Both the position numbers and the translations under genes were made by a program. Under the pieces are notes generated by a model, which was given only the letters and a program-made list of their open reading frames with translations, did not search any database and had not been told where the DNA came from. This document shows positions 11,865 through 29,155 of a stretch of DNA of 64,000 nucleotides, piece after piece. Location: sequence record OR352956.1; one strand, written 5' to 3'. The DNA is from Escherichia phage AV126. Within the stretch, counting starts at the first letter, position 1. Every line of letters starts with the position of its first letter.

Positions 11865-13853
11865 TTGTTAGAAATTAACGCCTCCAAAATTAGTAACGTG
11901 GTTACGTTTAAGGTGGACAAGAACAGTCTCAAGGAAGCAAAAGATGCCGTGTTGAGTGTTCAGAAGTTTGCAAATAAAATGCAACCCACTATGAACATGA
12001 CCAAGTTTAGACAACAAATGAAAGAGATTGAGCGTGAACTTAAGAAAGCTCAAACTCAAAGTCAAAAACCTATGCGAGCACCTACTCCCGCTGGAGCGGG
12101 TGCTCCTGTAGGCGGATCTGGCAGACCTAGAACTCCTAAAACCCCGCAAGGAAGAGAAGAAGAAAAAGCTCGTAAAGCTGCTGAACGCGAAGCTAAAGCA
12201 GCAGCACGTAGGGAAGACTTAGGTAATCTTCGTTTGCAGAACTTTAACTACAGAGCAAGAGCATTTAGTAAAGCCAGTCCTGGCGCTATGCAAGAAGCTA
12301 GAGACGTTATGGGTAAAGCTGTAGAGCAATACAAAAAGGGTGAAATAACTCTTCAACGTATGAACCAAGCTCTTGCTCACCAGTTGGATGCTTTACGCAG
12401 ATCTCATCGTGAAAAGAATGCTGAAATAGAAGACGAGGTTCGCGGTCGTCGCCGTATTCGTAGAGAGTTAGAAGCAGAAGCTAAAATGCGTATACGTATG
12501 CGAAATCGTGAACTTAGGGATATAGAACGAAATCGTAAGCGTGAATTAGCACAACAAAAACGTGATCGTGACCGTAGATATGGACAATTAAAAGAAGGTG
12601 CAGCAGGTCTTAATCCACGTATGATTGCATCCTCTTTGATAGGTGCTGGGCTGTTTGCAGGTGGTTCTGTAGTTGGTAACACGTTGATGAATACTAACGA
12701 AAGAATTAAACTTGTAAGCCGTGGTGCTGAAAACGTTCAGACAAACGCCAACGCTATTTTGGCAATGACAGCTTGGGGTGAACAGAACGGTGTAGACTCT
12801 GCAAATATTATTAAATCAATAGATAATATTAAAGACGTTCGTGAACGTCTTGGTAATACAGTTTTAGCTGCAAAGTGGAATGAGAAAGAAGGGAAGTGGA
12901 AAGGCGGTGATAATGGCATAACTGACATTATGAACTTGTTTGGATGGAATCCAGAACAGCTTAAACCTTTACAGAACGATCCTTTAGCTTTTATTCAGGC
13001 TACTGTTAATGAAGGTGAGCGTCGAGGTATGAACTCTGCTCAAATCGGGCGACTTCTTGAAAACCTTGGTGATGACCTTATGCACTACCAACGTATGTTT
13101 AGTAAAAACGGCGAAGGATATAATGAAGTATTGAAAATGCTTCAAAGAACAGGTGCAACATTAACTCAAGAACAAATAGATGCTTCTAAAGAGTTTACTC
13201 GTTTTGCTGCAACAGTTCAGCTTGTAGGTCAAGGTATGCAGAATCATTTCTTAGAGGGTTTTGTAAAAGCTTTACCTAAAGATGATTCTTGGTTGGATAA
13301 CGTTAAAGTGCTAGATCAGTTCGCCAAAGATTTAGGTGAAGAACTTGGTAAAACAACAGTTCAACTTGGTGGTTTTGCTAAAGAATTAGGAGATGGTTTC
13401 GGATCTTTTACCAATTGGCTTAAAGAAACATTCCCAGATACCTTCGGAGACAACACAGATCCTAATAAATCTTTGGCACAAAAAGCATACGAGGCAACGC
13501 AAAGTGGAGACAGCAATCCTGTAGCAGATTGGTTGTACAATTTAACAGGTATTGATACACAAGATATTGGTCGTATGTGGAGAGGAGAACAAACAAGGAC
13601 ACGTGCTTTTGGATTTGGTAATCCTCTTGAAGATTTACGTGAATCAGCCTATACACCTAACGTAAGTTTGGCTCGTAATCAACCTGTTGTTGAGAATACG
13701 GTAGCAATACCAAGTGATCTTATCAAAGTTACGATCAGCCCTTCTTCCGAGTTTGGAAATATTCTTGATGCAAGAATTCAAAATAGCGGAAATAGTATTT
13801 TCCAACGTTTGTCTCTTTCAACTCTAAGTGGACAATCTAACACTGGTGGTTAA
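11865..13853 (+). CDS. tail tape measure protein
   Basis: 662 aa; TTG start with GAGG SD; Arg/Lys/Glu coiled-coil N-half, Gly-rich hydrophobic segment (IASSLIGAGLFAGGSVVG); position after chaperone. Confidence 0.65.
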   Translation: MLEINASKISNVVTFKVDKNSLKEAKDAVLSVQKFANKMQPTMNMTKFRQQMKEIERELKKAQTQSQKPMRAPTPAGAGAPVGGSGRPRTPKTPQGREEEKARKAAEREAKAAARREDLGNLRLQNFNYRARAFSKASPGAMQEARDVMGKAVEQYKKGEITLQRMNQALAHQLDALRRSHREKNAEIEDEVRGRRRIRRELEAEAKMRIRMRNRELRDIERNRKRELAQQKRDRDRRYGQLKEGAAGLNPRMIASSLIGAGLFAGGSVVGNTLMNTNERIKLVSRGAENVQTNANAILAMTAWGEQNGVDSANIIKSIDNIKDVRERLGNTVLAAKWNEKEGKWKGGDNGITDIMNLFGWNPEQLKPLQNDPLAFIQATVNEGERRGMNSAQIGRLLENLGDDLMHYQRMFSKNGEGYNEVLKMLQRTGATLTQEQIDASKEFTRFAATVQLVGQGMQNHFLEGFVKALPKDDSWLDNVKVLDQFAKDLGEELGKTTVQLGGFAKELGDGFGSFTNWLKETFPDTFGDNTDPNKSLAQKAYEATQSGDSNPVADWLYNLTGIDTQDIGRMWRGEQTRTRAFGFGNPLEDLRESAYTPNVSLARNQPVVENTVAIPSDLIKVTISPSSEFGNILDARIQNSGNSIFQRLSLSTLSGQSNTGG

Positions 13854-13860
13854 TAAAATA

Positions 13861-13882
13861 CCTCGCTTCGGCGGGGTTTTTT
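13861..13882 (+). terminator. intrinsic terminator after tape measure gene (UUCG tetraloop)
   Basis: CCTCGC-TTCG-GCGGGG hairpin followed by TTTTTT. Confidence 0.75.
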
Positions 13883-13890
13883 CGTTTCCC

Positions 13891-13920
13891 TTGACACGAA
13901 GTTTCTATATGTGTTACAAT
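13891..13920 (+). promoter_or_regulatory. sigma70-like promoter, TTGACA-N18-TACAAT
   Basis: -35 at 13891-13896, -10 at 13915-13920, just after the terminator; followed by 5'-UTR hairpin GGAAGAT-cttgc-ATCTTCC (13931-13949). Confidence 0.5.
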
Positions 13921-13979
13921 AATCAATATGGGAAGATCTTGCATCTTCCTTTTGGCATTATCATTACTACGAGGTTATC

Positions 13980-14681
13980 ATGGCAGCAATGACTCCACAA
14001 CAGTCGGTGAGAGCCGTCTATAAGGCAGAACAGGAAATCAACTCTACCGAGAATAAAAATACCTCGGCATCTACTGTAAAGGGTGATAATGGTTTCTGCA
14101 TTTTAGCAAGTGTTTATAACAGTTCAAGTGATCAATACATTCAAAACTTTAAAGCAATTACTTTCGATTCAGTCCCTGAAATAGGTGTAACTCGTGAGGC
14201 AGATGTTACAAGTTTTCCAGTAGAATCAGGATCGGATGTAAGTGACCACGTTCAAATAAAAAACAACAGATTTAAACTTTCAGGTATAATTACCGAAACA
14301 CCAATTCGGCTTATGCGAGATCAATTATACAGTGCAGGTGTAAATGGAGCAAGGATTTCTCAAGCAATAGAATATCTAGACCAAATATTTGAGGCAAGAC
14401 AACCAATAGTTCTTTTGACAGAACACAGAACTTTTGAAAATGTTATCCTCAAAGGTTATTCGTATGATTATAAATCTGAATTTGCTATGCAATTTGATTT
14501 AGAGTTTGAACAAATCCGTCTCGTTTCTAAGGCCACTACTAACGCTATTGCTGTAAAAACAGCACCAAATAAGTCAACTGGTGGTGATGTGAAAGGTCAA
14601 GTTGCTTCGAATGGTCCTAAGTCAGATATTACAGTAAGAACTGCTGAAGCTACTAATACCCCAACAAACAACGGAGGTTAA
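13980..14681 (+). CDS. hypothetical tail/baseplate protein
   Basis: 233 aa, first gene after tape measure; GAGG SD. Confidence 0.5.
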   Translation: MAAMTPQQSVRAVYKAEQEINSTENKNTSASTVKGDNGFCILASVYNSSSDQYIQNFKAITFDSVPEIGVTREADVTSFPVESGSDVSDHVQIKNNRFKLSGIITETPIRLMRDQLYSAGVNGARISQAIEYLDQIFEARQPIVLLTEHRTFENVILKGYSYDYKSEFAMQFDLEFEQIRLVSKATTNAIAVKTAPNKSTGGDVKGQVASNGPKSDITVRTAEATNTPTNNGG

Positions 14682-14683
14682 TA

Positions 14684-15097
14684 GTGACAACTTATTCTAA
14701 AACAACAAGGTCTACAAGTAATGCAGGCTACAGTGCAGTTTATCTGGAGGACCATTCTACTTATTTTGCATGGTATCTGAAAACTGAAGAGTACCCTGAT
14801 CAAACATATACAGTTACATTGGATGGAGTTGATTATGACATTCGTTTAAGGTGGAACACTAGGGACGAGTCTTGGCAATGTCAGATAGGATTATCTGGAG
14901 ATGATCCAAGTATAAGTTTCAAAGTTACAAATGGTTTAGATCTTCTTAAACCTTATAAATATCTTGAAAGTGTGCCAGATGGTCAATTGTATATAGTAGA
15001 TACAGTTAAGATTAATGGTCGTCCTGGGTATACAACTACAGGTCGAGATAAACGTTTTGTATTGGTTTATATTGATAACAAACCTAATCAGGCGTAA
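14684..15097 (+). CDS. hypothetical baseplate protein
   Basis: GTG start after GGAGG SD; 137 aa. Confidence 0.45.
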   Translation: MTTYSKTTRSTSNAGYSAVYLEDHSTYFAWYLKTEEYPDQTYTVTLDGVDYDIRLRWNTRDESWQCQIGLSGDDPSISFKVTNGLDLLKPYKYLESVPDGQLYIVDTVKINGRPGYTTTGRDKRFVLVYIDNKPNQA

Positions 15098-15106
15098 GGA
15101 GATAAT

Positions 15107-16117
15107 ATGGCAGAAAGAGAGTATACAAAAGCTCCTGCCCCTAATTTAAACAGGGCATACAAATTATTAATTGGTTCTGCCACAAACACAATACAGAAGA
15201 GAACTAAGAACTCGGCATTTAAATCTACGGTAGATTTGGATACCAAGTTAGGGACAACAGAAAAATCCTCTTCTAATTTGTATTTGTTGCAAGACCATCA
15301 AATAACCTTCAGCATTAAGAAAGATAATAACAAAGATCCTAACCAAGCAGAGATTGTAGTTTATAACCTTTCGGATGATACTGTTAACTATATAAACCGT
15401 GGTATCCGAAATAACTTGGCTGTTGCTTTAGCGGTAGGATACGAAGGTGAAGAGTTGGTTATGGTCTTCAAAGGAACTATCCAGTGGGTTAGTGATACTT
15501 TTGACTCGGTAGACAGGAAAACCACTTTACACTGTTTGGATGGCGGTATTAACATTGCAGAAGCAAGAACAAGCCGCAGTTATCCAAAAGGAACTAAAAT
15601 CAAACGTGTTGTTACAGATTTGGTAAAGGATTTAGGAACTACAGAAGGTAATATACACGTAGATAATGATCAAACCTTATCTTCAGCAACAGCTATGTGT
15701 GGAAACACTTCACATTACCTAGAACATATTTGTAAAAGTATTGATCACAATGTGTCAATACAAGATGGATCTGTTTATGTCACTCCTCGTTCACAAATGT
15801 CTAGTGCACGTAGCGCCTATATTAGCCCTGAAACTGGTCTGATAGGAAGTCCAGAACCATTCCACAACGATATAAAACCTACTAAAAAAGTTACCAAGTC
15901 CTCTAAGAAGGCAAAGAAACCTACAGACGGTGTTAAATTCAAATGCCAAATGAATGGTGCAATATTACCAGAAAAAACAATCTGGTTAAAAAGCCGAGAT
16001 TATGATGGTCCATTTAAAGTTGTTTCTGTTTCTCACAATGGTGATAAAGAGGGTAAAGAGTGGGTTACTGAAGTGGAGTGTGTATCCGTGTCTGAAATAA
16101 TGACTAAGGAGAAATAA
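15107..16117 (+). CDS. putative baseplate hub protein
   Basis: 336 aa directly upstream of V-like spike and W-like genes (Mu gp44 / P2 gpD position). Confidence 0.35.
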   Translation: MAEREYTKAPAPNLNRAYKLLIGSATNTIQKRTKNSAFKSTVDLDTKLGTTEKSSSNLYLLQDHQITFSIKKDNNKDPNQAEIVVYNLSDDTVNYINRGIRNNLAVALAVGYEGEELVMVFKGTIQWVSDTFDSVDRKTTLHCLDGGINIAEARTSRSYPKGTKIKRVVTDLVKDLGTTEGNIHVDNDQTLSSATAMCGNTSHYLEHICKSIDHNVSIQDGSVYVTPRSQMSSARSAYISPETGLIGSPEPFHNDIKPTKKVTKSSKKAKKPTDGVKFKCQMNGAILPEKTIWLKSRDYDGPFKVVSVSHNGDKEGKEWVTEVECVSVSEIMTKEK

Positions 16118-16851
16118 TGGATGCATTGAATTTTGTCACAGCAATGCGTGGCTTAATGACAGAACAATTAGCAGAAGTCCATACAGCCTTGCCAGTCCGT
16201 GTGACTGGCGTTAATTATGGTGCTAAAACTGTCACTTTAGAATCTATTGTTAAAAACACACGATCTAGTGAAGATGAAATAGATTACCCTACTTTTGAAG
16301 ATGTTCCTTTTATGGTTAATGGCGGGGGGACAGGAAGAATCTCATTCCCTATTAAAGCTGGTGATTTAGGAACTGTTATATTTTCTGAAAGAGATCCTTC
16401 TAATGCACTGCAAACTAGTGGGGAAACCTCTTCATCATCCACTTTTATGCAGCCTTGTGGATTATACCCTATTTGTTTTATTCCCAAAATAGCTACAGGA
16501 ACAGATTCAACAGAAGCTGTAGATTCTGAAAAGGTAGTTATTTCTAATAACAAAAACACGTACGCTTCTTTCGACCCTACAGGTAATATTTCAATATGGA
16601 ATAGTCAAGGGATGAAAATAGATATTACTACCTCTGGTATTACTATTACAGATGGCACAGGGACTTTGGATCTAAAAGGTGGTAATTTAACTTTCAAAGG
16701 CGGCGTAGCAGATATTAATGGTCTTAAAATAGATCAGAACGGTTTGATGACAGATGGTAATGGCATCGGATTCCATACTCACACGCACACGGTTCGTAAC
16801 ATTCAGAGCGGTAGCTCAAGTGCCGAGTCCTTAAAACCAACAGGAGCCTAA
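16117..16851 (+). CDS. baseplate central spike protein (P2 gpV-like)
   Basis: PVRVTGVN and AGDLGTVIFSERD resemble the gpV OB-fold motif; C-terminal HTHTHT His cluster like metal-binding spike tips. Confidence 0.55.
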   Translation: MDALNFVTAMRGLMTEQLAEVHTALPVRVTGVNYGAKTVTLESIVKNTRSSEDEIDYPTFEDVPFMVNGGGTGRISFPIKAGDLGTVIFSERDPSNALQTSGETSSSSTFMQPCGLYPICFIPKIATGTDSTEAVDSEKVVISNNKNTYASFDPTGNISIWNSQGMKIDITTSGITITDGTGTLDLKGGNLTFKGGVADINGLKIDQNGLMTDGNGIGFHTHTHTVRNIQSGSSSAESLKPTGA

Positions 16852-16852
16852 C

Positions 16853-17479
16853 ATGGGAATCCCTTTTGACTTAAAGCTTGGACCAAACAACGACCTCATC
16901 ATGGACGATGGGGATTTGGTCCTCACCACAACCAGAACAGAAATTGCAGCACAAACTCTTGGGATAACTCTGAACACGTATCGTGGAGAGTGGTTTTTAA
17001 ATACTAACTTCGGTGTTCCTTACTTACAAGAGATTATTGGTGTTGCTAGAAAGAAAGATATTGTAGACAGAATATTTTTAGCGGAGATTGCCAAAAACGT
17101 TTACATAGATACAATAAACAGTTATAAATCTGCTTATGACATGGACCAACGTTATTACTCAATGACAGTTATGGTGACAGTTGGAGCAGATACAGTAACA
17201 TCCATATTCAATACTCAACCTTCTGAAGAGTTTATTTACCCTGAAGCTGGTGAAGATAATGCAGCGATCATTTGTGAAGCTTACAGTATTGTTGAGAATT
17301 CGAATAGACTTTATCGCTTTATCAACTTTGTTGGTTTGCCACGTGATACCTACTCTACTTGGTGGAATGAATGGTCTACAGAGTCAGCAGGGGAAAGAAT
17401 CATGGTTAACGAAAAAGGTGATGCATTAGCTACAAACAATAATTTCGGTATAACAGCTATGACAGGAGTAGAAGAATAA
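16853..17479 (+). CDS. baseplate wedge protein (gp25/gpW-like)
   Basis: N-terminal DLVLTTTRTEIAAQTLGITLNTYRGEWFLNTNFGVPY matches the characteristic gp25/gpW motif. Confidence 0.55.
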   Translation: MGIPFDLKLGPNNDLIMDDGDLVLTTTRTEIAAQTLGITLNTYRGEWFLNTNFGVPYLQEIIGVARKKDIVDRIFLAEIAKNVYIDTINSYKSAYDMDQRYYSMTVMVTVGADTVTSIFNTQPSEEFIYPEAGEDNAAIICEAYSIVENSNRLYRFINFVGLPRDTYSTWWNEWSTESAGERIMVNEKGDALATNNNFGITAMTGVEE

Positions 17480-17952
17480 TGGCAGATTTAACTACGATCA
17501 AAGTTTCTGATCTTACACAAACAACCTCTGTATCTGATACAGATTTCTTTGTAACAGATCAGGCTGGAATAACAAAGAAGACTTCTTTGAAAGTGCTGTT
17601 GAGTGGTGCAGGGGTAACTAGAAACCGTTTAAATGCACGGGGAACAGTAACTAGCACTTTGGCATTAGATATTAGTTCAGCAGAATATTTTTCGGCAACC
17701 TTATCTTCTGCAACGTGCACAATTAGTTTTACTAATATTCCAGTAGCAACGAATGCAGTTTTAAACTTTACTTTATCTTTGCGTCAAGGAAGTGGCGCAA
17801 ATAAAGTCGTATGGCCTTCTTCTGTAAAATGGAGTTTTGGTCGTTCCCCAGTTTTGAGTTATCGTCAAGGTGCAACAGACACTTTTGAGTTTATCAGTTA
17901 TGATAATGGTGCAACTTGGACAGGTAGCTTAGTTTTAGCAGGAGTTATTTAA
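17479..17952 (+). CDS. hypothetical baseplate/tail protein
   Basis: 157 aa, Ser/Thr-rich, start overlaps upstream stop. Confidence 0.45.
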   Translation: MADLTTIKVSDLTQTTSVSDTDFFVTDQAGITKKTSLKVLLSGAGVTRNRLNARGTVTSTLALDISSAEYFSATLSSATCTISFTNIPVATNAVLNFTLSLRQGSGANKVVWPSSVKWSFGRSPVLSYRQGATDTFEFISYDNGATWTGSLVLAGVI

Positions 17953-20828
17953 TGTCAAGAGTTAAGCACAATATTGACAACACGTTTCAGTTGATTGAAG
18001 GGTTGGTTCAGTTTCTGGAAAGAAATACTGGGCTTACTATAGATCCTACGGTTCAGCACTACATTATCAACCCACAAAACGTATTGGCGAACAACAGACA
18101 CTTTATTAACTGGACAGCGCAGGAAGGGCAACCAAACGGTGACGCTACTACCGAAGGTCAATCTGTGCTTATCACTGGTTTTGCTTATGCATATTTGGCT
18201 ACAGGGGATAAAAAATATCTTGAATCTGCCGAAAAGTATTGGCAAGCTTATATAGATGGCTTCTTCGGGGGCCAACCTATTCCTGATCCTCCGGCTAAAT
18301 ATCGTCCCAACTGGATCATCAATGGTAAAGAACCACGTTTAGCACATTACCCTCTCACAGACGATGGGTATCCTACGCACGGTGGGTTCAAAGGTAGCAT
18401 GATGACTTGGATTAACGGAAGAACTGTTATTCCTAAAGGTGCGCCACATTGGGGAGAATATTTAGATAAAGCTTGGTTTGCTTTCAATGGCAATCTTGGT
18501 TGGAACTCCGTTAACGCAACAGTTTATGCAATTAACCCAGACGGTTCAACCAACTGGAAAGAATATGGAGATCAGTGGGACGTTGAATGGATTATAGATC
18601 GTCTAGGACGTAAAGTTGATTGGGATGGTAACATTTTATCTACAGGTCACAGCTTTGCAGAATATGGAACAGTGCAACTTAAAAATGCTTCTGTGAACGG
18701 GGATTATAAATTCAACTATGCTACATGCAACCCTGTAGAACACGGTGGATATCTGCTTAAGCGTAATGAGATGTGGCATAACCGTCCTGTAAACGTTCCG
18801 GTAGAGTTAGGTTATCAAGATAATGCTTCCGATGCTGAAACGTGGTGGTGCGATGCAAACTACTTGATGTATCAGATCACAGGGGAGAGAAAATATTGGC
18901 TTTGCTGGCAATCTTCTTTATTGTTGTGTCAAGACTACTCAAACATTGATATGTTTGATAAATTCTTCCGTAGATCTACGACAGCGATAATTCCTTTTAC
19001 AGATGGTATATCTTATGATTACTCATATCCATCTACAGCAATACCTAAATACTCTCGTGACGAATTAGGCTACACAGTAATTCGCCAAGATGTTGCAGCC
19101 CAAACAACTCTAGAACAACAGGCAGTTTGGTTCAGAGTGGATCAGAATTCAAAACTGCGTATTGAGTTTCAAGGTGTAGATGATGCAGGGGAAGGTATTC
19201 TTTTCCGTCCAGAATTAGAATTAAGCAAGACTAAGAGTGAAACAGACACAGTGACATATCGTTGTGGCTTACCTCTTGGTGCAGCTAATATGACTAAGAT
19301 GGATATACCTTTATCTAGTTTTATGCGCACCGAACCTCCTGGAGGTGGTGTATATATTATTGCTGAACCTAGAATCATTGTTGACTGGGGAAGCAATACT
19401 GTGATACAATATAAATATGCAACTGGTATTGCTGGGACAAATAGTGATCAGATAGTTTCTGCTAATATGGATTCAGATGGTGGTTTTACTGTTGGGTTTT
19501 GGTTAACACCAACTAAAACAGCCAATTTAAAATCTATTACGTATCGTTCATACGCAGATGATTTTAACATCACTATTACGGATTCCGCAGGTTGGAGATG
19601 GTGGGCCATGTTAGAAAAAACAAATTCTACATGGGTTACTAAAGCTTTAAGTCCTGCTGATTTCAAATTAAGTACTTGGCAACCTAATCACGATGACACA
19701 GAGACAAAACCTTCGTCAATAAACCTGACTGCTATTGATCAGATCAATATTGCATTGGATTCTGAACCTGCAAATGGCTTGACGGGGGCAATCGATTTTT
19801 ATTGCGTTAACGATATCCCATCTTTGTATTCTTCAGCCACTGGTGATGATTACACAATGTATTTCAGGGTTACAGTTTCATCTGAAAATCCTTATACAGC
19901 AAAACTTGGAGATTGTACAATACTGGACTACAAACTTGACAGTTTGAATTATACTCCAGGAATCATTCCATTTTCTAATATTAGTGATCCTAACACAGCA
20001 TTATATGACGGTTGGCGCGGTATTCCTTACCCAGGTTATCAATACCCATCCTTATATTGTTTTAAAGGGAGAGATATTGATTGGGTTCGTATGAACAACA
20101 GTATAGACTTTTTATATGATTCACAAATGTGGTTTTATAATAAGTTTGCCCCTGTGATGCCTGGGCCAATGGCACAAGCTTATGTTTGGGATCGTTGGGA
20201 TGCTCATAAATACGGAAACAAGAATGAGTTCACAATGTATCATTGGAACGATAAAGCTTGGGATGGTTATGAAGCACGAGCATTCTTCTGTGCGTGTCAT
20301 ACAGTATACGAACTGAAACAACGAGGAGCAGAAGTTCCTGAAAAACTTTTAACAGTTTGTAAAAACTGGATCAACTATCTGAAGTGGTTCCAAGACAACA
20401 ACGAAGGAAGAACACCAACAATATTTTATCCCAATGGAGAAGTGGCAGCGCCTGTAGATGACTTTACAAGTCACATGTCTGCGCTCTTTATGGCAGGATG
20501 TGCTATAATGGGGATGGCTGGATATGATTCAGAAATTCCTAACATTAAAATAGTAGCAGACCGCTGTTTTGAACTTATTCAGGAAAATTATATTGTTCTT
20601 GGTCCTAATCATGTTATGAATGGCTGTTGGAGTTCCGCTCCTAGACCAGATAGTGATAACGGAGTCTTCTTTGGCTTCCACGCTGGAGAGTTGTTACGTG
20701 GTTTTGGGTTGTATGCTTTATACAAAAAACTTAATCCCCAAAATGCATTACCTGTTTTGGATTCGAGCAATATTCCTGCACTTACTGTTTTGACAATGGC
20801 AAACATTAGTGTGGACGTTACCGAGTAA
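17952..20828 (+). CDS. large tail-associated protein, possible glycan-hydrolase-like tailspike
   Basis: 958 aa, Trp/Tyr/Asn-rich; inserted between baseplate W-like and J-like genes; function inferred from position only. Confidence 0.3.
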   Translation: MSRVKHNIDNTFQLIEGLVQFLERNTGLTIDPTVQHYIINPQNVLANNRHFINWTAQEGQPNGDATTEGQSVLITGFAYAYLATGDKKYLESAEKYWQAYIDGFFGGQPIPDPPAKYRPNWIINGKEPRLAHYPLTDDGYPTHGGFKGSMMTWINGRTVIPKGAPHWGEYLDKAWFAFNGNLGWNSVNATVYAINPDGSTNWKEYGDQWDVEWIIDRLGRKVDWDGNILSTGHSFAEYGTVQLKNASVNGDYKFNYATCNPVEHGGYLLKRNEMWHNRPVNVPVELGYQDNASDAETWWCDANYLMYQITGERKYWLCWQSSLLLCQDYSNIDMFDKFFRRSTTAIIPFTDGISYDYSYPSTAIPKYSRDELGYTVIRQDVAAQTTLEQQAVWFRVDQNSKLRIEFQGVDDAGEGILFRPELELSKTKSETDTVTYRCGLPLGAANMTKMDIPLSSFMRTEPPGGGVYIIAEPRIIVDWGSNTVIQYKYATGIAGTNSDQIVSANMDSDGGFTVGFWLTPTKTANLKSITYRSYADDFNITITDSAGWRWWAMLEKTNSTWVTKALSPADFKLSTWQPNHDDTETKPSSINLTAIDQINIALDSEPANGLTGAIDFYCVNDIPSLYSSATGDDYTMYFRVTVSSENPYTAKLGDCTILDYKLDSLNYTPGIIPFSNISDPNTALYDGWRGIPYPGYQYPSLYCFKGRDIDWVRMNNSIDFLYDSQMWFYNKFAPVMPGPMAQAYVWDRWDAHKYGNKNEFTMYHWNDKAWDGYEARAFFCACHTVYELKQRGAEVPEKLLTVCKNWINYLKWFQDNNEGRTPTIFYPNGEVAAPVDDFTSHMSALFMAGCAIMGMAGYDSEIPNIKIVADRCFELIQENYIVLGPNHVMNGCWSSAPRPDSDNGVFFGFHAGELLRGFGLYALYKKLNPQNALPVLDSSNIPALTVLTMANISVDVTE

Positions 20829-20836
20829 GGGGTAAA

Positions 20837-22990
20837 ATGAAACAAGCTATATTTACTGTCACGCGAGACAAGAGAGTAAATGCGAGTTCATTTAACTACA
20901 CGACTGTTGATGGAACAGCAGTCGCTGGTAGAGATTATATTGCAAAATCGGGAACACTTGTGTTCCCTGATGATGCTGATTCTGCTACCATTGTGGTTGA
21001 AGTATTTGAACGACCAAAGAACTCAATAGATCTTAACTTCTCCCTCCAAGTTTCAGGGATTAGTCAAAATAACATGATGGTTGAAACGACCATCAATTGT
21101 ATTATAACTACGATCCAAGAAAATACTACTCCAATAACTTGGACTACAAAAGACGTTAAAATGTTCTCTCCTATGTATTGGACAATAGATTCTCAAGCAA
21201 CGGAAAGTTGTTCTATTGTATCTCATGGAGACTCTTTTACTGCAAGATTTGTAAACAGAACAACAGCAGGTTTGGCAGGGGTTATCTGGAGCACAGTTGA
21301 CAAATATGACCATAAAGGTGTTGGGTATTTACCCCACACAGATTTAAGTTCAGAGAAACTTTGGTTTAAAATGGAAATTAGTCAAAACATGCCAGGTTTT
21401 AAAGAAGAACCTTTGGTGCCAACTTTGACTGTAACTCTCTTGGATAAAAGTGTCCACTATGTTAGTTTAGGATTTTATGCTTCAGATATTTCAGAAGATG
21501 GTAAAACAGCTACAATCAAATTAGATTTTGGTAATATCTTTTCTGGTCCTAATAACGATATTCCTTTGGACATGAGTGCTGTAGATAATATTTTCTTCTC
21601 TTTGATTACAGCAAGGTATGAAGAAATAGAAGAGATTGTGCCTATTGATAGTCAAGAGGCTTGGTTTACTTTCACTCTCCTTGAACCTACTTCTGGTTAT
21701 AGCATCATGAAAGTCAGCAACCTTGTCCAGCCTGAACATGATATTCGTATGTGCACATCTTATGATGATATGTATAACCTGACTCCAGAGAGAGTTATTT
21801 ATAATACATATGCGCTAGGTTATCGTGGGATGATTAACCATTATAACGGAATGTCCCATTATTATGAGTTCTCATGGAATGGAACATCTTGGGCTTTAAA
21901 TAGATCTGTCTTCCTGAATCCTGCCACAGAAGCTTGGCTAAATAGTTTCCATTCTATAGCAAACGAGAAGGGCTACACAATAATGAACTCTTTAAGTTTT
22001 GAATTGATGAGCACAGTTTGTCCTGTAGAATGGGTCCAGCATGATTGGAACGATGCTCTTGCAGCAACAGGGTATGAACCTCCTAGTTATGTGTTGTCTC
22101 CAACTATTGACGAAGGTATGGAATATTTGCAAAATGTTATTAATAAAATAGCATCTATTTCGCAAGCTAATAATATTCCAGTTGTCATTCAAATTGGTGA
22201 GCCTTGGTGGTGGTATAATACAGCAAGTAAAATGCCTTGCATATATGATTACACTACCAAACTGGCATTCAACACAGAAACAGGTTTATTTGCACAAGAT
22301 GCAGGAACAATAGATAATTATAAAACAGGAACGCCGTTTGACGAATACTATGCATTTTTGTCTCGTAAACTAGGATTAAGAGTTACAAAGTTTGCAACAG
22401 ATACTAGAGCAACTTACCCAGGAGCCAAGGTAACATTGCTTCCGTTCTTGCCATCAATTATCGGCAACGGTTTGATGGAGTTTGTTAACTTCCCTAAAGA
22501 TTATTATATCCCAGAAAACTTCGACTTTTATTGTTCAGAATGTTATGACTGGTTGTTGGAAGGTAAGATGGAAAAATCTTTTGACGCTATCACAATACCT
22601 AATGAACAATTAGGTTTTAGTTATGATAAGATACATTATCTTGCAGGTTTTGTTCCAGATGCTACTCTTGCACCTTTGTATGGCTTTGATCCTAAATCAA
22701 ACTACCGCACATATCTTTGGAAGATGATTATAGGTAACATAGTGTTGAACGCCAATAAGTTTGACGGACTTACACAATATATATGGGCCTATCCTCAAAT
22801 AATGCATGATTCTATCACGGTAGTTAATTCTCAATCCCAAGTTTTCTATATGGGTAACGTGCCTTTGAACGTTTATTTACAGGATATCACTCTTAAACAG
22901 GTAAATGTTGAGATTGCCACCATAAGTGGAATTACATTAGCCACTAAATCTGGAGAAGATTTAGTAACAACACAAAAATTTTATATATAG
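20837..22990 (+). CDS. tail-associated protein with N-terminal Calx-beta-like domain
   Basis: N-terminus TVDGTAVAGRDYIAKSGTLVFPDDAD matches Calx-beta signature (DGTA..G.DY....GTL.F); 717 aa. Confidence 0.4.
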   Translation: MKQAIFTVTRDKRVNASSFNYTTVDGTAVAGRDYIAKSGTLVFPDDADSATIVVEVFERPKNSIDLNFSLQVSGISQNNMMVETTINCIITTIQENTTPITWTTKDVKMFSPMYWTIDSQATESCSIVSHGDSFTARFVNRTTAGLAGVIWSTVDKYDHKGVGYLPHTDLSSEKLWFKMEISQNMPGFKEEPLVPTLTVTLLDKSVHYVSLGFYASDISEDGKTATIKLDFGNIFSGPNNDIPLDMSAVDNIFFSLITARYEEIEEIVPIDSQEAWFTFTLLEPTSGYSIMKVSNLVQPEHDIRMCTSYDDMYNLTPERVIYNTYALGYRGMINHYNGMSHYYEFSWNGTSWALNRSVFLNPATEAWLNSFHSIANEKGYTIMNSLSFELMSTVCPVEWVQHDWNDALAATGYEPPSYVLSPTIDEGMEYLQNVINKIASISQANNIPVVIQIGEPWWWYNTASKMPCIYDYTTKLAFNTETGLFAQDAGTIDNYKTGTPFDEYYAFLSRKLGLRVTKFATDTRATYPGAKVTLLPFLPSIIGNGLMEFVNFPKDYYIPENFDFYCSECYDWLLEGKMEKSFDAITIPNEQLGFSYDKIHYLAGFVPDATLAPLYGFDPKSNYRTYLWKMIIGNIVLNANKFDGLTQYIWAYPQIMHDSITVVNSQSQVFYMGNVPLNVYLQDITLKQVNVEIATISGITLATKSGEDLVTTQKFYI

Positions 22991-22998
22991 GAGTAAAA

Positions 22999-25005
22999 AT
23001 GTCAACTACAATTACTAATTTACCCGAAACATCAAAAGTTAATGGTTCTGATTACCTGGTTTTAGACCAACCTGATAAGACTGTTAAAAGCACAGTTTCC
23101 AACTTTCTTAAAGTTGCTGGAATATACAAGCATTTCTCCTCTTTTTACGAGATGATTGCATCCACGGAGGAAGAGTTACCTGTAGATTCAGTATGCTCAA
23201 CCGGCGGCACAATGTGGGTTAGGTCTGCTACTCAGCCGGCATTAACATCCTTTACCCCTATAAGTGCGATTTGCGGAGATGATTTCGGCATAACCGCTGG
23301 AGGGTCTGTCCCTGGCCAGACCATATCTGATTTCCTAACTGTAGCTTACACATCTGGGTGCCGTGGGTACTTCAAGTCAGTCGGTGAAGTTACTGTAACC
23401 AGCAGTATAGAACTATTGTCGATTGATAAAAACTTAGTTGTTGATTGGTCTGGCATAAAGCTGTTCGGGGCCTCTGATGGGGTGGAAATGCACCTGTCAT
23501 CAACCGAGATTCAGTCTTCACTTCTTGCTGATATGGATCGTGGCTCTACAGTTGTGCGGGTGGCCGGGGCTGTAGAGGGTGATTTGATTTACATAGAGGA
23601 TAACGAGAAGTACGAGACTCAGTGGGGATTTAACTCCAGGGAGTTGTTTATTGCAGAGCGTGAGTCTGGTTCTGATATGAAAATTGATCGACCTTCCCTT
23701 TTCAGGCACTTGATCGCAAACAACGTTAAGGTGAACAGGTACAAACCAGTAAGGTTGATTTTCAACAACTTCAAGATGGAGCATTTCAATAACCGTGATA
23801 ACTCATCTTTTGTGAATGTAGGCTCCGTGTCATTCGGGACTTCATCTTCGTGGTTTCGCGGTTTTTATATGCCTGTTTTTTCTGGTGACGTGGAGACTAG
23901 CGGCGGTTCTTCATACTCATTGATAGCTTGCTACATGCCGAGGGTTGGTAATGTAGTTGCTAATAGGTGTCAATACCCTATTAGCCCAGCAGCAGGCACT
24001 TATGACACAGTTATTGAGAGCATCACAGCAACATTCTGCCGACATGCTGCCGCTCCAACAACTTGGTTCAATAAGTTTGAGGTTAAAAAGTGCTTCGGCT
24101 ACAACAACTTCGCCACGATGGACTCCCACGCGGGTTTTGATGCTAAATGGCGTAATGTGTTCGCAACGGAAGAACAAGACATGCCGAATATAAGATGCAT
24201 TGGTGGTGAGATTACCGATATCAATATAGTTGCCAGCTTAGGTACAACCCCTGCGGAAGACCCCCAGATAGGTCTCGTTACATTCACTGGTGATGCTTCT
24301 ATGTACAGAGATTGGATTGCCACTAATGTTACGCTCAATTATAAGAACCGAACCGATGATATTTTCGCATTACCATGGCAGGCTGATAATGTCTATTACG
24401 AAAATATTAACTGCATGGGGGGCTTTATTAGATGCGCAAACACAGCATCAAAAATAAAAACAGTAACATTAACAAACATCAATGCCAGCGTGAGACTGGT
24501 AGGTAACTGCGGAAATCTGAAAACATTAATAAACAACAGGGTAATTCCAGATGGTAGTTTCTACATGTATGAGAATGCACCGAACGCGAAGAGAACTACA
24601 TTATGGGAAGTTAACTGTGGGCATACTTCGGGGGCGTCTGCTAACAAAGTTTTAAAGATTTTTGATAACTATGGAACATCAGAATCACAAAACCTACTAG
24701 TAAAAGTTAAGTCGTGCTCTTCATATAATAACGGAGGATCCGTTGCTTATATTGAGAAGACGTACCTAGTAAATCATAAGCTCAGCGCGAACTCTTCCGC
24801 GTCGATATCAGGACCTGTGAATGAAACTCGCATAAACGGCGTGACAGATTCGGACATATCACTCAATGTAACATTAACTAATTCTGCGGGATACACACAG
24901 TCACCAGATATAAACGCGCATTTCTTTGAGCTAACTATAGCTACAGCCACAAGTAGACCGAATAACGTATTCGGTATAACTGTAGAGATATCAAAACTCA
25001 ATTGA
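22999..25005 (+). CDS. tailspike / receptor-binding protein (chimeric)
   Basis: 668 aa; AT-rich conserved-looking N-terminal anchor (MSTTITNLPETSKVNGSDYLVLDQ), then body with higher GC and different codon usage. Confidence 0.5.
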   Translation: MSTTITNLPETSKVNGSDYLVLDQPDKTVKSTVSNFLKVAGIYKHFSSFYEMIASTEEELPVDSVCSTGGTMWVRSATQPALTSFTPISAICGDDFGITAGGSVPGQTISDFLTVAYTSGCRGYFKSVGEVTVTSSIELLSIDKNLVVDWSGIKLFGASDGVEMHLSSTEIQSSLLADMDRGSTVVRVAGAVEGDLIYIEDNEKYETQWGFNSRELFIAERESGSDMKIDRPSLFRHLIANNVKVNRYKPVRLIFNNFKMEHFNNRDNSSFVNVGSVSFGTSSSWFRGFYMPVFSGDVETSGGSSYSLIACYMPRVGNVVANRCQYPISPAAGTYDTVIESITATFCRHAAAPTTWFNKFEVKKCFGYNNFATMDSHAGFDAKWRNVFATEEQDMPNIRCIGGEITDINIVASLGTTPAEDPQIGLVTFTGDASMYRDWIATNVTLNYKNRTDDIFALPWQADNVYYENINCMGGFIRCANTASKIKTVTLTNINASVRLVGNCGNLKTLINNRVIPDGSFYMYENAPNAKRTTLWEVNCGHTSGASANKVLKIFDNYGTSESQNLLVKVKSCSSYNNGGSVAYIEKTYLVNHKLSANSSASISGPVNETRINGVTDSDISLNVTLTNSAGYTQSPDINAHFFELTIATATSRPNNVFGITVEISKLN

Positions 25006-25026
25006 CACACCACAAATAAAAACTAG

Positions 25027-25042
25027 TCCTGCTTCGGCGGGG
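25027..25042 (+). terminator. UUCG-tetraloop hairpin after tailspike gene (no U-tract)
   Basis: CCTGC-TTCG-GCGGG, same motif family as terminator at 13861; followed by GTAATCATT. Confidence 0.3.
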
Positions 25043-25072
25043 TAATCATTGAGAATAACAATAGGAGTACAT

Positions 25073-25171
25073 ATGGAATCTCAACTCAGTCAACCTAAGC
25101 AGGTTATCAACGTCAAAGTGAACAAGCAGAGTATCGCTCATGATTTAAAAAGTAATGAGAACGCACTATGA
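25073..25171 (+). CDS. small hypothetical protein (32 aa)
   Basis: ATG 7 nt after AGGAG SD; stop overlaps next start (ATGA). Confidence 0.3.
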   Translation: MESQLSQPKQVINVKVNKQSIAHDLKSNENAL

Positions 25172-25410
25172 GAAAATTTTTAATAGGTATGTTCTGTACA
25201 TATCCTGATAATAAAGTCAGTTCTACTAAAGTCTGGAACGCTGTAGGCATGTCGGTTATGACAGGCATGTTTATCTTTTTAGGAATAGAAAAAGAAATTC
25301 CTGAATGGATGGGTTGGGCTTTTGTTTTCATGATAACCCCTTCTCGCCTCATGAAAAATCTTATTGATTTACGTTGGGGCAGATCACAATCTACCAAAGA
25401 GGATGACTAA
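25168..25410 (+). CDS. small membrane protein, holin-like topology
   Basis: 80 aa; two hydrophobic segments (VWNAVGMSVMTGMFIFLGI; WMGWAFVFMITP) and charged C-terminus (RWGRSQSTKEDD). Confidence 0.3.
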   Translation: MRKFLIGMFCTYPDNKVSSTKVWNAVGMSVMTGMFIFLGIEKEIPEWMGWAFVFMITPSRLMKNLIDLRWGRSQSTKEDD

Positions 25411-26897
25411 TGGACGAATATGGTTTGACAGATGCGGGATTTGTAATCCCGACTTTTGACGATGTTTTAAACAACTACATGACAGCAGTAAAAAACACAT
25501 TTGGTGCAGATGCAGCCACTTCGGAAGATACTGTGATCGGACAACTGTTTAGAATAATTGCATACACAGATTACACATTGTGGGAAGGTATGCAAGGGGT
25601 TTATAATACTCAAACACTGGATGGTGCAGAAGGTATTTATCTTGACGAAATCTTTTCTAAACGTGGTTTCTATCGAGCAGGGGCAGCAGCAAGTACAGGT
25701 TATGCATATGTTAAGAGTAATAACAAAGCAGCTTGGACTTATGAGCTAGGCACGGATATTTACTTCAACTCTGATAGTGATATGAACTACTATGTTAGCA
25801 CACCAACTATGTTGAATGCTAAGATTGCAGCTTATCAAATCTCTCGTGCTAATGCAACTGCTACAGGTGTTCCAAATATTACTTTTTATGCACAAAGTGC
25901 GGTAGACGGAGGACTAAACAGTAAAACACTTGCACCTGGTTCTTCTACATTTATAACAGATCTTGAAACTTTTATCAAGGCGAACTTAACAGAGGCTGAT
26001 CGTAGTCTTGTATTTTCTGATTCTGGTAACTTGTCAATTGGTTTTACTTCTTTAACCAGTGATACTCCAGTGGGATTAGTAACTCCTATCAAATTTTATG
26101 CTAGTGTTCCAGTTGGAACCAAATGGAGTGAAATTCCGGTAGTTGCAGCAGAGAAAGGATACAATCCGGTGGGTGTGGAGTCTATTACAGGGATATCTTC
26201 TACCTTTACAGGTTATCTTGATAGTGGTAACTTCTATTCGTTTTCTCCTGGTCGAGATGTTGAGACAGATGCAGAATTCCGCTCTCGTTTCAATGACAAC
26301 GTTGACGAAGCTAACGCAGGGACACGAGCAGCTATTGTGAAAGCTCTGTTACTTACAGATGGTGTTACTAAGGTGAAGATTTATGATAACCCTACGTTAC
26401 ATGATCAAGAACATGCTCCAGCTATGACTTTCCAGACTATAGTCTATGGAGGGAGTGCTGAAGAAGTTGCTGAAGTTATTTACAAAACTAAACCAATCAA
26501 CAGTTTGACACATGGAACAACTAATATAACTGTTACAACGGAAGACGGAGGACAAGAAATTATTCGTTTTTCTCCTGGTGCTTCTGCTACGTATTCCGTA
26601 AAACTTGTTTATCAAACTGTCAACGGAACAACTTTAAGTGGAACAGAAAAACAAAACATTGTAGAAGCTTTACAAAACCTGCAAGCTTACTTTGAATTAG
26701 GTTCTTCAGTAACGAACGATCAAATCAAAGGTGTTATTTATGCAGCACTTGCTTTTGGACGCTTGACTTCTCTTCGTGTTTATGTTAAACTTAATACTGA
26801 GGATGACAGTAAATATACAGAGAATAATATAGTTCCTGCTTATAATGTTGTCCCTTCTTTTGACCTTGATAACATTTCTTACGAGTATGGAGTGTAA
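25410..26897 (+). CDS. baseplate J-like protein
   Basis: 495 aa; LDGAEGIYLDEIFSKRGFYRAGAAASTGYAYV resembles the baseplate-J motif; followed by I-like gene and tail fibre. Confidence 0.45.
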   Translation: MDEYGLTDAGFVIPTFDDVLNNYMTAVKNTFGADAATSEDTVIGQLFRIIAYTDYTLWEGMQGVYNTQTLDGAEGIYLDEIFSKRGFYRAGAAASTGYAYVKSNNKAAWTYELGTDIYFNSDSDMNYYVSTPTMLNAKIAAYQISRANATATGVPNITFYAQSAVDGGLNSKTLAPGSSTFITDLETFIKANLTEADRSLVFSDSGNLSIGFTSLTSDTPVGLVTPIKFYASVPVGTKWSEIPVVAAEKGYNPVGVESITGISSTFTGYLDSGNFYSFSPGRDVETDAEFRSRFNDNVDEANAGTRAAIVKALLLTDGVTKVKIYDNPTLHDQEHAPAMTFQTIVYGGSAEEVAEVIYKTKPINSLTHGTTNITVTTEDGGQEIIRFSPGASATYSVKLVYQTVNGTTLSGTEKQNIVEALQNLQAYFELGSSVTNDQIKGVIYAALAFGRLTSLRVYVKLNTEDDSKYTENNIVPAYNVVPSFDLDNISYEYGV

Positions 26898-26899
26898 AA

Positions 26900-27529
26900 A
26901 TGGCAGTGAGTGTTGACCATGTAACAACTTGGGCCAGTATCAATGAAGACGTTAAAAACCTTCTGATTGAAGATTTTAAATCTTCTCCTAACATTGTCAA
27001 GCTCCTCTACATCGTATCCAGTGAAAAGCAAAAGATAGATCAGGCAATGATCTATCTTGCTAAACACCGCTTGATCTCCACAGCCACAGGCAAATACCTA
27101 GATATCTTAGGAGAAGAAATGGGGATCGAACGTAATGGCTCTGATGATGAAGAGTATAGAACAATATTAAAAATCAGGGCTTACCGCGTAGCCTCATCGG
27201 GGACTCGTGGTGACATAATTGATATCTTCGCCCGTTTCACAGGAACCGAGCGTGAAACGCTTAATACTTACGTAGGTTTGAATAAAACCTTTGATGTGTT
27301 TTTCTACAACCTGTGTCTTCAATCTGATCAAGCTTTAGAGCAGTTGCTAAGTGTTTTTCCTATTATTAGCAGCTACCGTCTTGGAGCAAAAGCAGGATCA
27401 GCTTTTGGTTTTAGTTCTTATTATGCTACCAAACCGCCTCATGGTATTGGTGGTTTAGGTTCCCTGTACATGGAATCTACTGGGGATGAAACAGGACGCA
27501 TGTGTACGCTTCTCAAGCAAATAGATTAA
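26900..27529 (+). CDS. putative baseplate/tail protein (P2 gpI-like position)
   Basis: 209 aa between J-like gene and tail fibre. Confidence 0.35.
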   Translation: MAVSVDHVTTWASINEDVKNLLIEDFKSSPNIVKLLYIVSSEKQKIDQAMIYLAKHRLISTATGKYLDILGEEMGIERNGSDDEEYRTILKIRAYRVASSGTRGDIIDIFARFTGTERETLNTYVGLNKTFDVFFYNLCLQSDQALEQLLSVFPIISSYRLGAKAGSAFGFSSYYATKPPHGIGGLGSLYMESTGDETGRMCTLLKQID

Positions 27530-27538
27530 GGAGTTTAA

Positions 27539-28600
27539 ATGGCGAAGCCAATATATTATCCTGACTGGGCTACACAAACTGTAACGCTCCCAGGAACTTT
27601 AAACACAAACAAAATTAGACCTAAAGAAACCATCCGCACAGTTGGTATGGATTATGGTCAAATCATGACTTGCGAAGAAATGAACTGGATTCTTAATAAT
27701 ATCGGTTTATGGATTCGTTATTTGGTGGATGACTTTATTCCAACTTTACCTAATACTTACTTGCCTTTAGTTGGAACTAAGATTACAATGGCAGGTGATG
27801 CTACTGGTGAGGCTACTTGGAACGGTGATAAAGAAGTTATTTTATCTATCCAAGTTCAAGATAACAGTCATAATCACTTATCGGCAAACATTACAGATGC
27901 TACTAGTTCAATAGTAACACCAAATGTGTTGGTAAAACGTGATGCAGGTGGTGCTATTTATGGTGGTGATGTTTATGTTAATGGTACTTCCACAACAGAT
28001 CCTGCAACCCTGTTTTTCAAGAACTTTGCAGGACAGACTAATGGTGAGATTTCTGCCGAATACCAAAGTGGAGGTCAGCTTTATATTTATCGTAGAAATC
28101 CTAGCACAGGTAGTGTAGCCGCAGGTGTTCGTTTATATGATGCAGGTTATGTTCTAATAGACAATCCAAGATCAAACAATGGACAAGACACTTCAAACGG
28201 AAATGCTTTAGTTCGCTTAGATTATCTGAATTCTCGTTTGACCTCTCTTCAGAACACATTGCAGACGAATATTAACACTGTTCAAAACAACTTGAATAAT
28301 GTTAACAACAACCTCTCTTCTCGTATAAACAATGTAGAAAGTAATCATCAAAGTCAGATTACAAATAACTACAACTATGCTAACGGAACCTTTGTAAGAG
28401 ATATTCGTTATACTAGCCAGGGTGTGTATTATCCGCCAGGGAACGAAGTTTCTTGGACTTATATCTGTTCTTCTGGTTATGTTCTTTCTGGTATTATTGT
28501 TCAGGAAACAGGTCGTAGTTCTGCGGATAACATTGGTGGGGTTTACTTCAAACGCCTCCAGCGCAACGTTAACGGAAACTGGTACGATATTGGAGGCTAA
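27539..28600 (+). CDS. tail fibre protein
   Basis: 353 aa; Asn/Gln/Thr-rich with coiled-coil (LDYLNSRLTSLQNTLQTNINTVQNNLNNVNNNLSSRINNVESN); directly upstream of tail fibre assembly gene. Confidence 0.55.
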   Translation: MAKPIYYPDWATQTVTLPGTLNTNKIRPKETIRTVGMDYGQIMTCEEMNWILNNIGLWIRYLVDDFIPTLPNTYLPLVGTKITMAGDATGEATWNGDKEVILSIQVQDNSHNHLSANITDATSSIVTPNVLVKRDAGGAIYGGDVYVNGTSTTDPATLFFKNFAGQTNGEISAEYQSGGQLYIYRRNPSTGSVAAGVRLYDAGYVLIDNPRSNNGQDTSNGNALVRLDYLNSRLTSLQNTLQTNINTVQNNLNNVNNNLSSRINNVESNHQSQITNNYNYANGTFVRDIRYTSQGVYYPPGNEVSWTYICSSGYVLSGIIVQETGRSSADNIGGVYFKRLQRNVNGNWYDIGG

Positions 28601-29146: not shown

Positions 29147-29155
29147 GGGATCACT

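Follow-up and report, generated by a model that had tools for sequence, protein, structure and literature searches.

Phage phi92 (Justusliebigvirus) was reportedly described by Schwarzer et al. in 2012 as having a multivalent adsorption apparatus, for which virion mass spectrometry (MS) and first protein assignments were given. The locus concerned has been called the 'Swiss army knife' adsorption locus of phi92-like phages (PMC8594841; PMC11984140). In phi92 cryo-electron microscopy (cryo-EM), gp139 is the sheath initiator, gp145 and gp146 form the wedge, and three sets of six fibres or spikes are carried on the C-terminal domain of gp145 (PMC13450770). Fibre I has the shape of an L with gp143 as its putative tip, fibre III is gp147, and the arm protein of fibre I and fibre II were left unassigned (PMC13450770). 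Two further systems are relevant: N4, in which six copies of a gp64-gp65 heterodimer surround the short tail as a structural sheath and gating complex (PMC13434306), and rV5 (Vequintavirus), in which gp41, gp42 and gp43 were detected in virions by MS (PMC3606486). Here we compare with these systems a block of four tail genes at 17479-25005 in Escherichia phage AV126, encoding proteins of 157, 958, 717 and 668 aa between W-like and J-like baseplate genes. The window, that is, the whole stretch of DNA analysed, comprises 64,000 nucleotides of sequence record OR352956.1.

Judged by gene-for-gene orthology and synteny, the AV126 block is the known phi92-type adsorption locus, 1:1 syntenic with phi92 genes 140-144. 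In the phi92 record these genes encode proteins of 157, 958 and 719 aa, an endosialidase precursor (endoN) and a membrane protein, and are followed by wedge gene 145. AV126 has the same order, the same sizes (717 aa for the third protein), the same spike slot with the same spike anchor, a membrane protein and a J-like wedge. The difference lies in slot 143, which holds the endosialidase in phi92 and a 668-aa predicted beta-helix spike with another body in AV126. Our joint working model, to which we give a probability of about 0.72, is that the block is the peripheral host-recognition module of a contractile-tail baseplate of the phi92/phAPEC8 type. An elaborate multi-spike baseplate had already been suggested by the sequence-only reading, made from the letters without database searches; phi92 orthology, phi92 cryo-EM and rV5 virion MS support it, with the correction that the 668-aa protein is the only one of the four that is a spike in the strict sense. 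The AV126 block is an ordinary member of a known locus type with a rare spike allele: the multi-spike reading is already published, and broad host range through co-expressed spikes and fibres has been established for phi92-like phages since 2012. What is new here are the junctions of the spike cassette, the anchor on the 157-aa protein, and the predicted fold and the fusion partners of the 958-aa protein. The genes are the following.

16853-17479, + strand: sheath initiator of 208 aa, W/gp25-like, orthologue of phi92 gp139 (phrog_4233, 2e-79; phrog_120 baseplate wedge, 6e-20).
17479-17952, + strand: small fibre-like protein of 157 aa, counterpart of phi92 gp140 and rV5 gp43 (phrog_9017, 1e-68).
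17952-20828, + strand: conserved tail protein of 958 aa, counterpart of phi92 gp141 and rV5 gp42, with a predicted split (alpha/alpha)6 glycosidase-like barrel and beta-sandwich inserts.
20837-22990, + strand: protein of 717 aa, counterpart of phi92 gp142 and rV5 gp34, with three Pfam domains above the gathering score.
22999-25005, + strand: slot-143 tailspike of 668 aa, as given by the open reading frame (ORF) listing.
25168-25410, + strand: predicted membrane protein of 80 aa, counterpart of phi92 gene 144 (phrog_1322, 1.8e-27; phi92 annotation).
25410-26897, + strand: J-like wedge protein of 495 aa, counterpart of phi92 gp145, whose C-terminal domain bears fibres I and III (PF04865, 2.5e-8; phrog_6, 1e-42; PMC13450770).

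The four ORFs of the sequence-only reading agreed exactly with the ORF listing in coordinates and strand, and they are real genes and not chance ORFs, because each has many homologues. Its P2/Mu-like gene order was also confirmed, as every component (hub, spike or V, W, J, I, fibre and Tfa) was identified; its count of four extra genes between W and J was one too low, the 80-aa gene at 25168-25410 being the fifth. The GPW_gp25 match of the 208-aa protein is weak (Pfam, E 0.16), and its gene is also placed as the counterpart of phi92 gp139 by synteny. The 80-aa protein has a modest hydrophobic segment at aa ~21-45, with mean hydropathy peaking at ~1.2. Junctions are tight, with an ATGA overlap at each of the first two and 8 nt between the genes at each of the next two; a gap of 162 nt follows the 668-aa gene. 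Promoter- and terminator-like sites inside the block were at chance level, which, together with the tight junctions, is consistent with a single late operon. Most of the gap after the 668-aa gene is taken up by a 32-aa ORF at 25074-25172 (MESQLSQPKQVINVKVNKQSIAHDLKSNENAL), which runs into the beginning of the 80-aa gene.

The source phage is, by its nucleotide relationships, a Phapecoctavirus-like myophage, Phapecoctavirus being the sister genus to Justusliebigvirus. Positions 17000-25500 matched 132 phage records (megablast). The E. coli phages KKP 3954, nieznany, ESCO5 and REC (Phapecoctavirus, Stephanstirmvirinae) matched in two pieces at 97-98% nucleotide identity and ~76% query coverage, while Serratia phage KKP_3264 (Justusliebigvirus) was the sole record covering 100% of this interval, at 82% identity. 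Nucleotide identity to REC was 98.2% over 13000-23110 and 97.5% over 25173-30000. The gene order of AV126 and phi92 was also present in the REC and KKP_3264 records; more generally, the block genes kept their order in phi92 and in the inspected or listed records of Phapecoctavirus, Justusliebigvirus and PVP-SE1-like phages, and were rearranged in rV5. G+C content was flat across the block (0.38-0.40), and no tRNAs, Rfam families, integrase genes or flanking repeats were found around it. In P2 and Mu, W is directly followed by J. The block could be imagined as a recent mobile island or moron cluster, peculiar to AV126, that broke a P2/Mu-like W-J junction; the genes are indeed extra relative to P2/Mu, a P2-like prophage shows the order V-W-J-I, and the spike body has a foreign history. 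This is very improbable, and for the whole block it is effectively refuted by the conserved gene order, the flat G+C content and the lack of tRNAs, Rfam hits, integrase genes and repeats at the flanks; moreover, the discordant history is confined to 23110-25042. The block is ancestral to Stephanstirmvirinae and Vequintavirinae. The 'insertion' described in the sequence-only reading holds relative to P2/Mu alone, recent exchange having affected the spike body only.

The comparison with rV5 brings in virion data. rV5 has homologues of the 157-, 958- and 717-aa proteins and a variable spike that bears the anchor: gp41 occupies the spike slot, gp42 is the homologue of the 958-aa protein and gp43 that of the 157-aa protein. 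These are the three proteins detected by MS. rV5 differs from AV126 in that gp34, the homologue of the 717-aa protein, is encoded downstream of the wedge genes, and in that a siphophage-like Dit/Tal/J module (gp40-gp37) stands between the spike and the J-like wedge. This module (locus L009, 14693-20100) encodes a distal tail protein, a tail protein and a 1279-aa 'central tail fiber J' in a myophage baseplate operon, and it is absent from the AV126 window. The literature yielded no virion proteome of a Phapecoctavirus.

The 668-aa spike consists of two parts with different histories, and a small hairpin follows its gene.

22999-23109, + strand: N-terminal anchor of the spike, aa 1-37 (similarity to ~aa 42), 88-90% identical in more than 70 proteins.
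23110-25005, + strand: exchangeable receptor-binding body of the spike, aa 38-668, delimited by matches to Agtrevirus TSP3 and KKP_3264.
25028-25041, + strand: GC-rich hairpin of 5 bp with a TTCG loop, 23 nt beyond the stop codon of the 668-aa gene, read from the sequence.

The same anchor precedes more than 70 different bodies at slot 143 (tblastn and large protein search), including endosialidase, pectate-lyase-like, Beta_helix, SGNH/GDSL, GDPD, BNR sialidase and NAGPA bodies. Only the first ~42 residues of the 668-aa protein are conserved among slot-143 proteins, and the protein has the modular build of a conserved anchor with an exchangeable body. The same principle is known from the branched tailspike complexes of CBA120 and AV101 (PMC10791037). 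The AV126 body was 98% identical in amino acids to the KKP_3264 protein. In TSP3 (849 aa) of the Agtrevirus phages PC3, PH4 and RPN242 (Ackermannviridae), it corresponds to the last 631 residues, with 92-93% identity in amino acids and 90-92% in nucleotides. TSP3 differs in its N-terminal region, which has ~218 aa compared to the 37-42-aa anchor of AV126. Metagenomic proteins with other N-termini, among them a T7-tail-fibre N-terminal domain, were 76-85% identical to the body, and in related metagenomic proteins the place of the long TSP3 N-terminal region is taken by a PF18668 domain.

Nucleotide homology to REC ended at 23110 and resumed at 25173. By contrast, Agtrevirus homology spanned 23110 to 25042/25043 at 90-92%, and identity to KKP_3264 was 92-99.8% within 22783-25282 compared to 69-83% in the flanks. 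Because the breakpoint at 23110 is clean and the identities of cassette and flanks are discordant, these alignments mark the spike body (23110-25042) as a clean and recent cassette exchange, presumably a horizontal acquisition. Among 50,697 phage records, the combination of this anchor with this body was found only in KKP_3264. The movement of a near-identical spike body between Phapecoctavirus, Justusliebigvirus (with a Serratia host) and Ackermannviridae is thereby documented, and an exchangeable specificity cassette is delimited with its junctions (23110-25042), which is useful to phage engineers retargeting such phages. That Agtrevirus phages trade receptor-binding domains with distant virulent phages was noted earlier (PMC10791037), in a paper that does not report the receptor of the PC3/PH4/RPN242 TSP3. 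The hairpin at 25028-25041, which was not among the sites given by the consensus terminator scan, coincides with the end of the Agtrevirus homology (25042/25043) and may be a recombination boundary or a weak terminator.

Searches with the 668-aa protein itself gave no match in Pfam, PHROGs, NCBIfam or the PDB (phmmer). Exhaustive phmmer found 76 remote relatives, and their profile matched K1 lyase (1e-12), GH55 glucanases, rhamnogalacturonase A, the Sf6 tailspike and phi92 gp150 in the PDB. One relative (P0204, E 1e-16 to the 668-aa protein) carries PF12708 across the aligned region. With moderate confidence, these sequence links point to a right-handed beta-helix polysaccharide depolymerase tailspike.

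The anchor of the spike is shared with the small protein at the start of the block. The C-terminal ~100 residues of the 157-aa protein (aa 55-157) matched nine tail-fibre or structural PHROGs including phrog_9017, and the protein was 43% identical to the C-terminus of rV5 gp43. Its N-terminal ~41 residues (anchor, aa ~5-45) give an ungapped alignment with the 668-aa anchor (Smith-Waterman score of 62 vs. 22.7 ± 4.4 in shuffled sequences, none of 5000 shuffles reaching 62). A hidden Markov model (HMM) of the anchor motif, run over the ORFs of the window, found the 157- and 668-aa proteins only. BLASTP detected no paralogues among the window's tail proteins, the anchor similarity being seen by Smith-Waterman alignment with shuffles. 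In rV5, the anchor-bearing gp43 and gp41 flank gp42, the homologue of the 958-aa protein.

The 958-aa protein had no match in Pfam or NCBIfam even at E = 5, and direct phmmer against the PDB gave a spurious 22-residue match to a designed protein. It is 99.8% identical to the REC protein and 83% identical to the Justusliebigvirus orthologues. Its homologues form more than 300 clusters in a large protein collection, mostly of ~940 aa and 43-55% identical, and the family is present in 533 phage records (Stephanstirmvirinae, Vequintavirinae, jumbo phages of 240 and 350-370 kb, Rosemountvirus, phage 7-11, and Erwinia, Vibrio and Aeromonas phages). An AlphaFold2 (AF2) model, built from 26 diverse homologues, reached a pLDDT of 85.4 and a pTM of 0.81. 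Twelve long helices in the model form a barrel of the (alpha/alpha)6 fold, which is split by two beta-rich regions.

18396-18779, + strand: first beta-rich insert of the 958-aa protein, aa 149-276, from the secondary structure of the model.
19008-19931, + strand: second, larger beta-sandwich insert of the 958-aa protein, aa 353-660, from the secondary structure of the model.

Foldseek related the inserts to carbohydrate-binding modules (CBM) of the CBM11/CBM22 type (CBM11 with probability 1.00 and TM 0.53-0.57, not mapped to a particular insert). The whole-chain comparison against the PDB was uninformative beyond the CBM-like inserts (TM <0.15); in BFVD, full-length structural relatives of the model are annotated as tail fibres of Klebsiella and Alteromonas phages. 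The protein does not belong to a curated glycoside hydrolase (GH) family, and a weak local match to the GH76 profile (E 2.5e-4) covers ~35 residues. It differs from the (alpha/alpha)6 GHs and their relatives (GH8, GH76, GH88/105, AGE-type epimerases), to which it is 7-13% identical, in that its modelled barrel is split by two large beta-rich inserts, it stands outside the curated families and its catalytic residues are putative. The family has 130 invariant columns, including D64/E68, D294/E296, D750 and E913, which the model places at the N-termini of barrel helices; these acidic residues are compatible with an active site, without being proof of one. The 958-aa protein was also compared with N4 gp65, and the idea that it is a diverged gp65 was rejected (hhalign probability of 0.2%).

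The fusion partners of the 958 module indicate where it may act. In a P2-like prophage, V, W and J are immediately followed by a gene for gpI with the module fused to its C-terminal end (P0166, locus L008, 10001-13294), which places the module on the wedge. In a SU10-like podophage contig it is fused to an NCTSP_N domain and a TIM barrel, replacing Calx-beta (P0170, locus L007, 6691-11364), which argues that the 958- and 717-aa proteins act together.

The 717-aa protein is composed of three domains.

20846-21082, + strand: Calx-beta domain, aa 4-82 (PF03160, 7.6e-11; matches to calcium-binding domain (CBD) structures of the Na/Ca exchanger).
21155-21697, + strand: NCTSP_N domain, aa 107-287 (PF23844, 5.9e-16), homologous to the N-terminal part of N4 gp65.
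21731-22810, + strand: TIM barrel of the N4 gp64 type, aa 299-658 (PF23845, 1.1e-78).

The Calx-beta N-terminus had been recognised correctly from the letters alone. PF23844 and PF23845 scored 58.7 and 265.2 bits vs. a cut-off of 27, and the PDB matches of the protein were N4 Gp64 (3.6e-31) and N4 gp65 (3.9e-12). By BLASTP, aa 360-660 align with residues 113-408 of N4 gp64 (30% identity, E 4e-35), aa 267-344 with gp65 341-416 and aa 101-159 with gp65 51-109; the TIM-barrel motifs GEPWWWYN and ECYDW are invariant in the alignment from N4 to AV126. The 717-aa protein therefore contains homologues of both the gp65 N-terminal region and the gp64 TIM barrel (PDB 9lc0, 9yf4). It differs from N4 in that both parts are in one chain after Calx-beta, the ~950-aa receptor-binding extension of gp65 is absent, and the 958-aa partner has no detectable relation to gp65. 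Related records name the 717-aa homologue 'non-contractile tail sheath'. AV126 does not show the N4 arrangement of a six-fold sheath around a short non-contractile tail; it encodes a contractile sheath (DUF3383), a tube, a tape measure and a full baseplate. Because AV126 has this contractile sheath gene, the label reflects homology and not function.

The receptor requirements of the phages that share this domain suggest a candidate ligand. The Gp64-like domain is common to N4, Vequintavirinae and relatives, and Phyre2 identified it as a poly-GlcNAc deacetylase (BASEL, PMC8594841). N4, Vequintavirinae and phi92-like phages all require wecB and nfrB (Sellner et al., PMC8669472), and the requirement for both genes indicates that the N4 glycan receptor (NGR) is used and not the enterobacterial common antigen (ECA) (PMC8669472). 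The N4 group and the phi92-like group are thus alike in NGR dependence (PMC8669472), and the dependence of phi92-like phages on wecB/nfrB has been considered together with the shared Gp64-like domain (PMC8594841, PMC8669472, PMC11984140). The 717-aa protein is a candidate NGR-glycan-binding or -processing subunit.

One check proposed in the sequence-only reading was a search for a glycosidase or esterase fold in the 958- and 717-aa proteins. Such folds were obtained for both (the (alpha/alpha)6 barrel and the N4 gp64-type TIM barrel, respectively), while no enzyme family was matched. 'Dead' enzyme folds are common in phage tails. The two proteins could accordingly be purely structural adaptors with inactive enzyme-like folds that scaffold exchangeable spikes, like N4 gp64/gp65 with their roles in NfrA binding and tail gating; the sheath and gating function of the N4 heterodimer (PMC13434306) and the failure of enzyme-family HMMs to match either protein speak for this. 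We consider it doubtful. Many polar and acidic positions do not vary among homologues of 43-83% identity that come from unrelated types of phage; they lie at the N-terminal ends of the 958 barrel helices and in the GEPWWW and ECYDW motifs of the 717-aa protein. In addition, the length of the 958 module is constant in myo-, sipho- and podophages, which argues for an intrinsic activity and not for fit to one baseplate, and the CBM-like inserts of the model suggest at least sugar binding. A bolder version of the host-recognition module, which we put forward tentatively as one possibility, is that the 958- and 717-aa proteins form a heterodimeric, active 'glycan-processing arm' (the proximal part of fibre I, or fibre II) that is independent of morphotype, the 958-aa protein representing an undescribed virion GH family acting on a conserved enterobacterial glycan such as NGR. 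Such a module would be mounted on P2-like wedges (gpI fusion), on podophage adaptors (as the SU10-like fusion or, in the case of the 717 part, as the N4 sheath) and on siphophage tails.

The location of the block proteins in the particle has to be considered separately. Some of them could be placed on the neck, collar or head, as appendages like whiskers or head spikes, and not on the baseplate. In Enterobacter/E. coli lambda-like prophages (loci L005/L006, 8319-12823), a free 940-aa homologue of the 958-aa protein (53% identical) is encoded after a 560-aa protein and before putative tail-tube genes, between head-completion and tail-tube genes; in siphophages, the 958 module may therefore be mounted elsewhere than on the baseplate. 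A probable further case is ORF17 of phage S144 (homology to the 958-aa protein unchecked), located ahead of the sheath gene, and the SU10-like podophage fusion comes after the adaptor gene. Furthermore, N4 gp64/gp65 attach near the head-tail adaptor (PMC13434306), phi92 gp140 is reported to be similar to the head spike gp52 of phage Pa223 (PMC13450770), and neither gp141 nor gp142 is part of the phi92 baseplate models. Still, such a location is unlikely for AV126. Within the clade, W and J always enclose the genes in the baseplate operon, the junctions being overlaps or closely spaced, and the gpI-958 fusion puts the module on the wedge. The 668-aa protein has its anchor in common with gp143, the putative tip protein of the wedge-borne fibre I, and the phi92 baseplate has densities for the fibre I arm and fibre II that are unassigned.

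Under the preferred reading of the block as a peripheral host-recognition module, the 958- and 717-aa proteins would form a complex, the conserved proximal arm at the wedge periphery, present in six copies per baseplate on the outer C-terminal domain of the J-like wedge. The 157-aa protein and the 668-aa spike, both as trimers, would dock on this arm through their shared ~40-aa N-terminal anchor. The 958/717 arm would bind, and perhaps process, a conserved surface glycan, the candidate being the wecB/nfrB-dependent NGR polysaccharide (used by N4, rV5-like and phi92-like phages), while the exchangeable beta-helix depolymerase body of the spike would set strain specificity (O- or K-antigen). Glycan binding and cleavage would bring the baseplate to the outer membrane, where the Mu-S-like fibre (353 aa) would bind, and rearrangement of the wedge would then lead to sheath contraction, as described for phi92. 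The model is a testable proposal for the gp141/gp142 homologues, which are unplaced in the latest phi92 structure.

Several observations weigh against this model. The rV5 MS table, which lists 19 proteins, does not contain gp34, the homologue of the 717-aa protein; this is weak evidence, because the hub and gp35 are also missing from the table. No structure places the gp141/gp142 homologues in the baseplate, and the 2026 phi92 paper does not mention them (PMC13450770). Catalysis is putative for the 958- and 717-aa proteins, the former being outside any CAZy or Pfam enzyme family, and the N4 homologues are treated as a structural sheath and a protein-receptor binder. A PgaB-like deacetylase or GH match for the TIM barrel of the 717-aa protein was not obtained: the family profile against the PDB gave only N4 gp64/gp65 and Calx-beta, so that the 'deacetylase' label goes back to the published Phyre2 statement. 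Some 958-family genes adjoin neck or tail-tube genes and not baseplate genes (L005, and probably S144 ORF17, with homology unchecked). NGR dependence was tested in phi92-like and rV5-like phages and not in a Phapecoctavirus. Finally, the AF2 model of the 668-aa protein, from a shallow alignment of 7 sequences, had a pLDDT of 36.8, and because this model failed, the beta-helix assignment stands on remote sequence links.

The genes flanking the block are those expected from the P2/Mu-type order, in which the five additional genes stand between W and J. Upstream of the W-like gene are the following.

Starting at 13980: Dit-like tube initiator.
Starting at 14684: plug similar to Pam3 gp18.
Starting at 15107: hub similar to E217 gp41.
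Starting at 16117: central spike (PF18352/PF21930).

From the gene order, the phi92 equivalent of the central spike is inferred to be gp138, between gp137 and gp139. Downstream of the J-like wedge there are an I-like protein (phrog_4056), a fibre (phrog_4465; Mu-S-like, 353 aa) and Tfa (PF02413, Caudo_TAP).

Further along the window, a 1017-aa protein (29495-32548) carries a Tail_spike_N domain (PF18668, aa 302-361) and a WcaM-like region (aa 502-662). It probably corresponds to the colanidase spike gp150 of phi92, which it exceeds by ~200 aa. After the 1017-aa protein comes a 674-aa protein (32615-34639) with collagen-like Gly-X-Y repeats (NCBIfam Scl1/Lcl adhesin models, aa ~207-484), at the position of the phi92 gp151 fibre. 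At ~37400-38300, both the coding strand and the GC skew flip, from the late tail genes on the + strand to genes on the - strand. This flip matches the layout of phi92, in which replication and glycosyltransferase genes run the opposite way.

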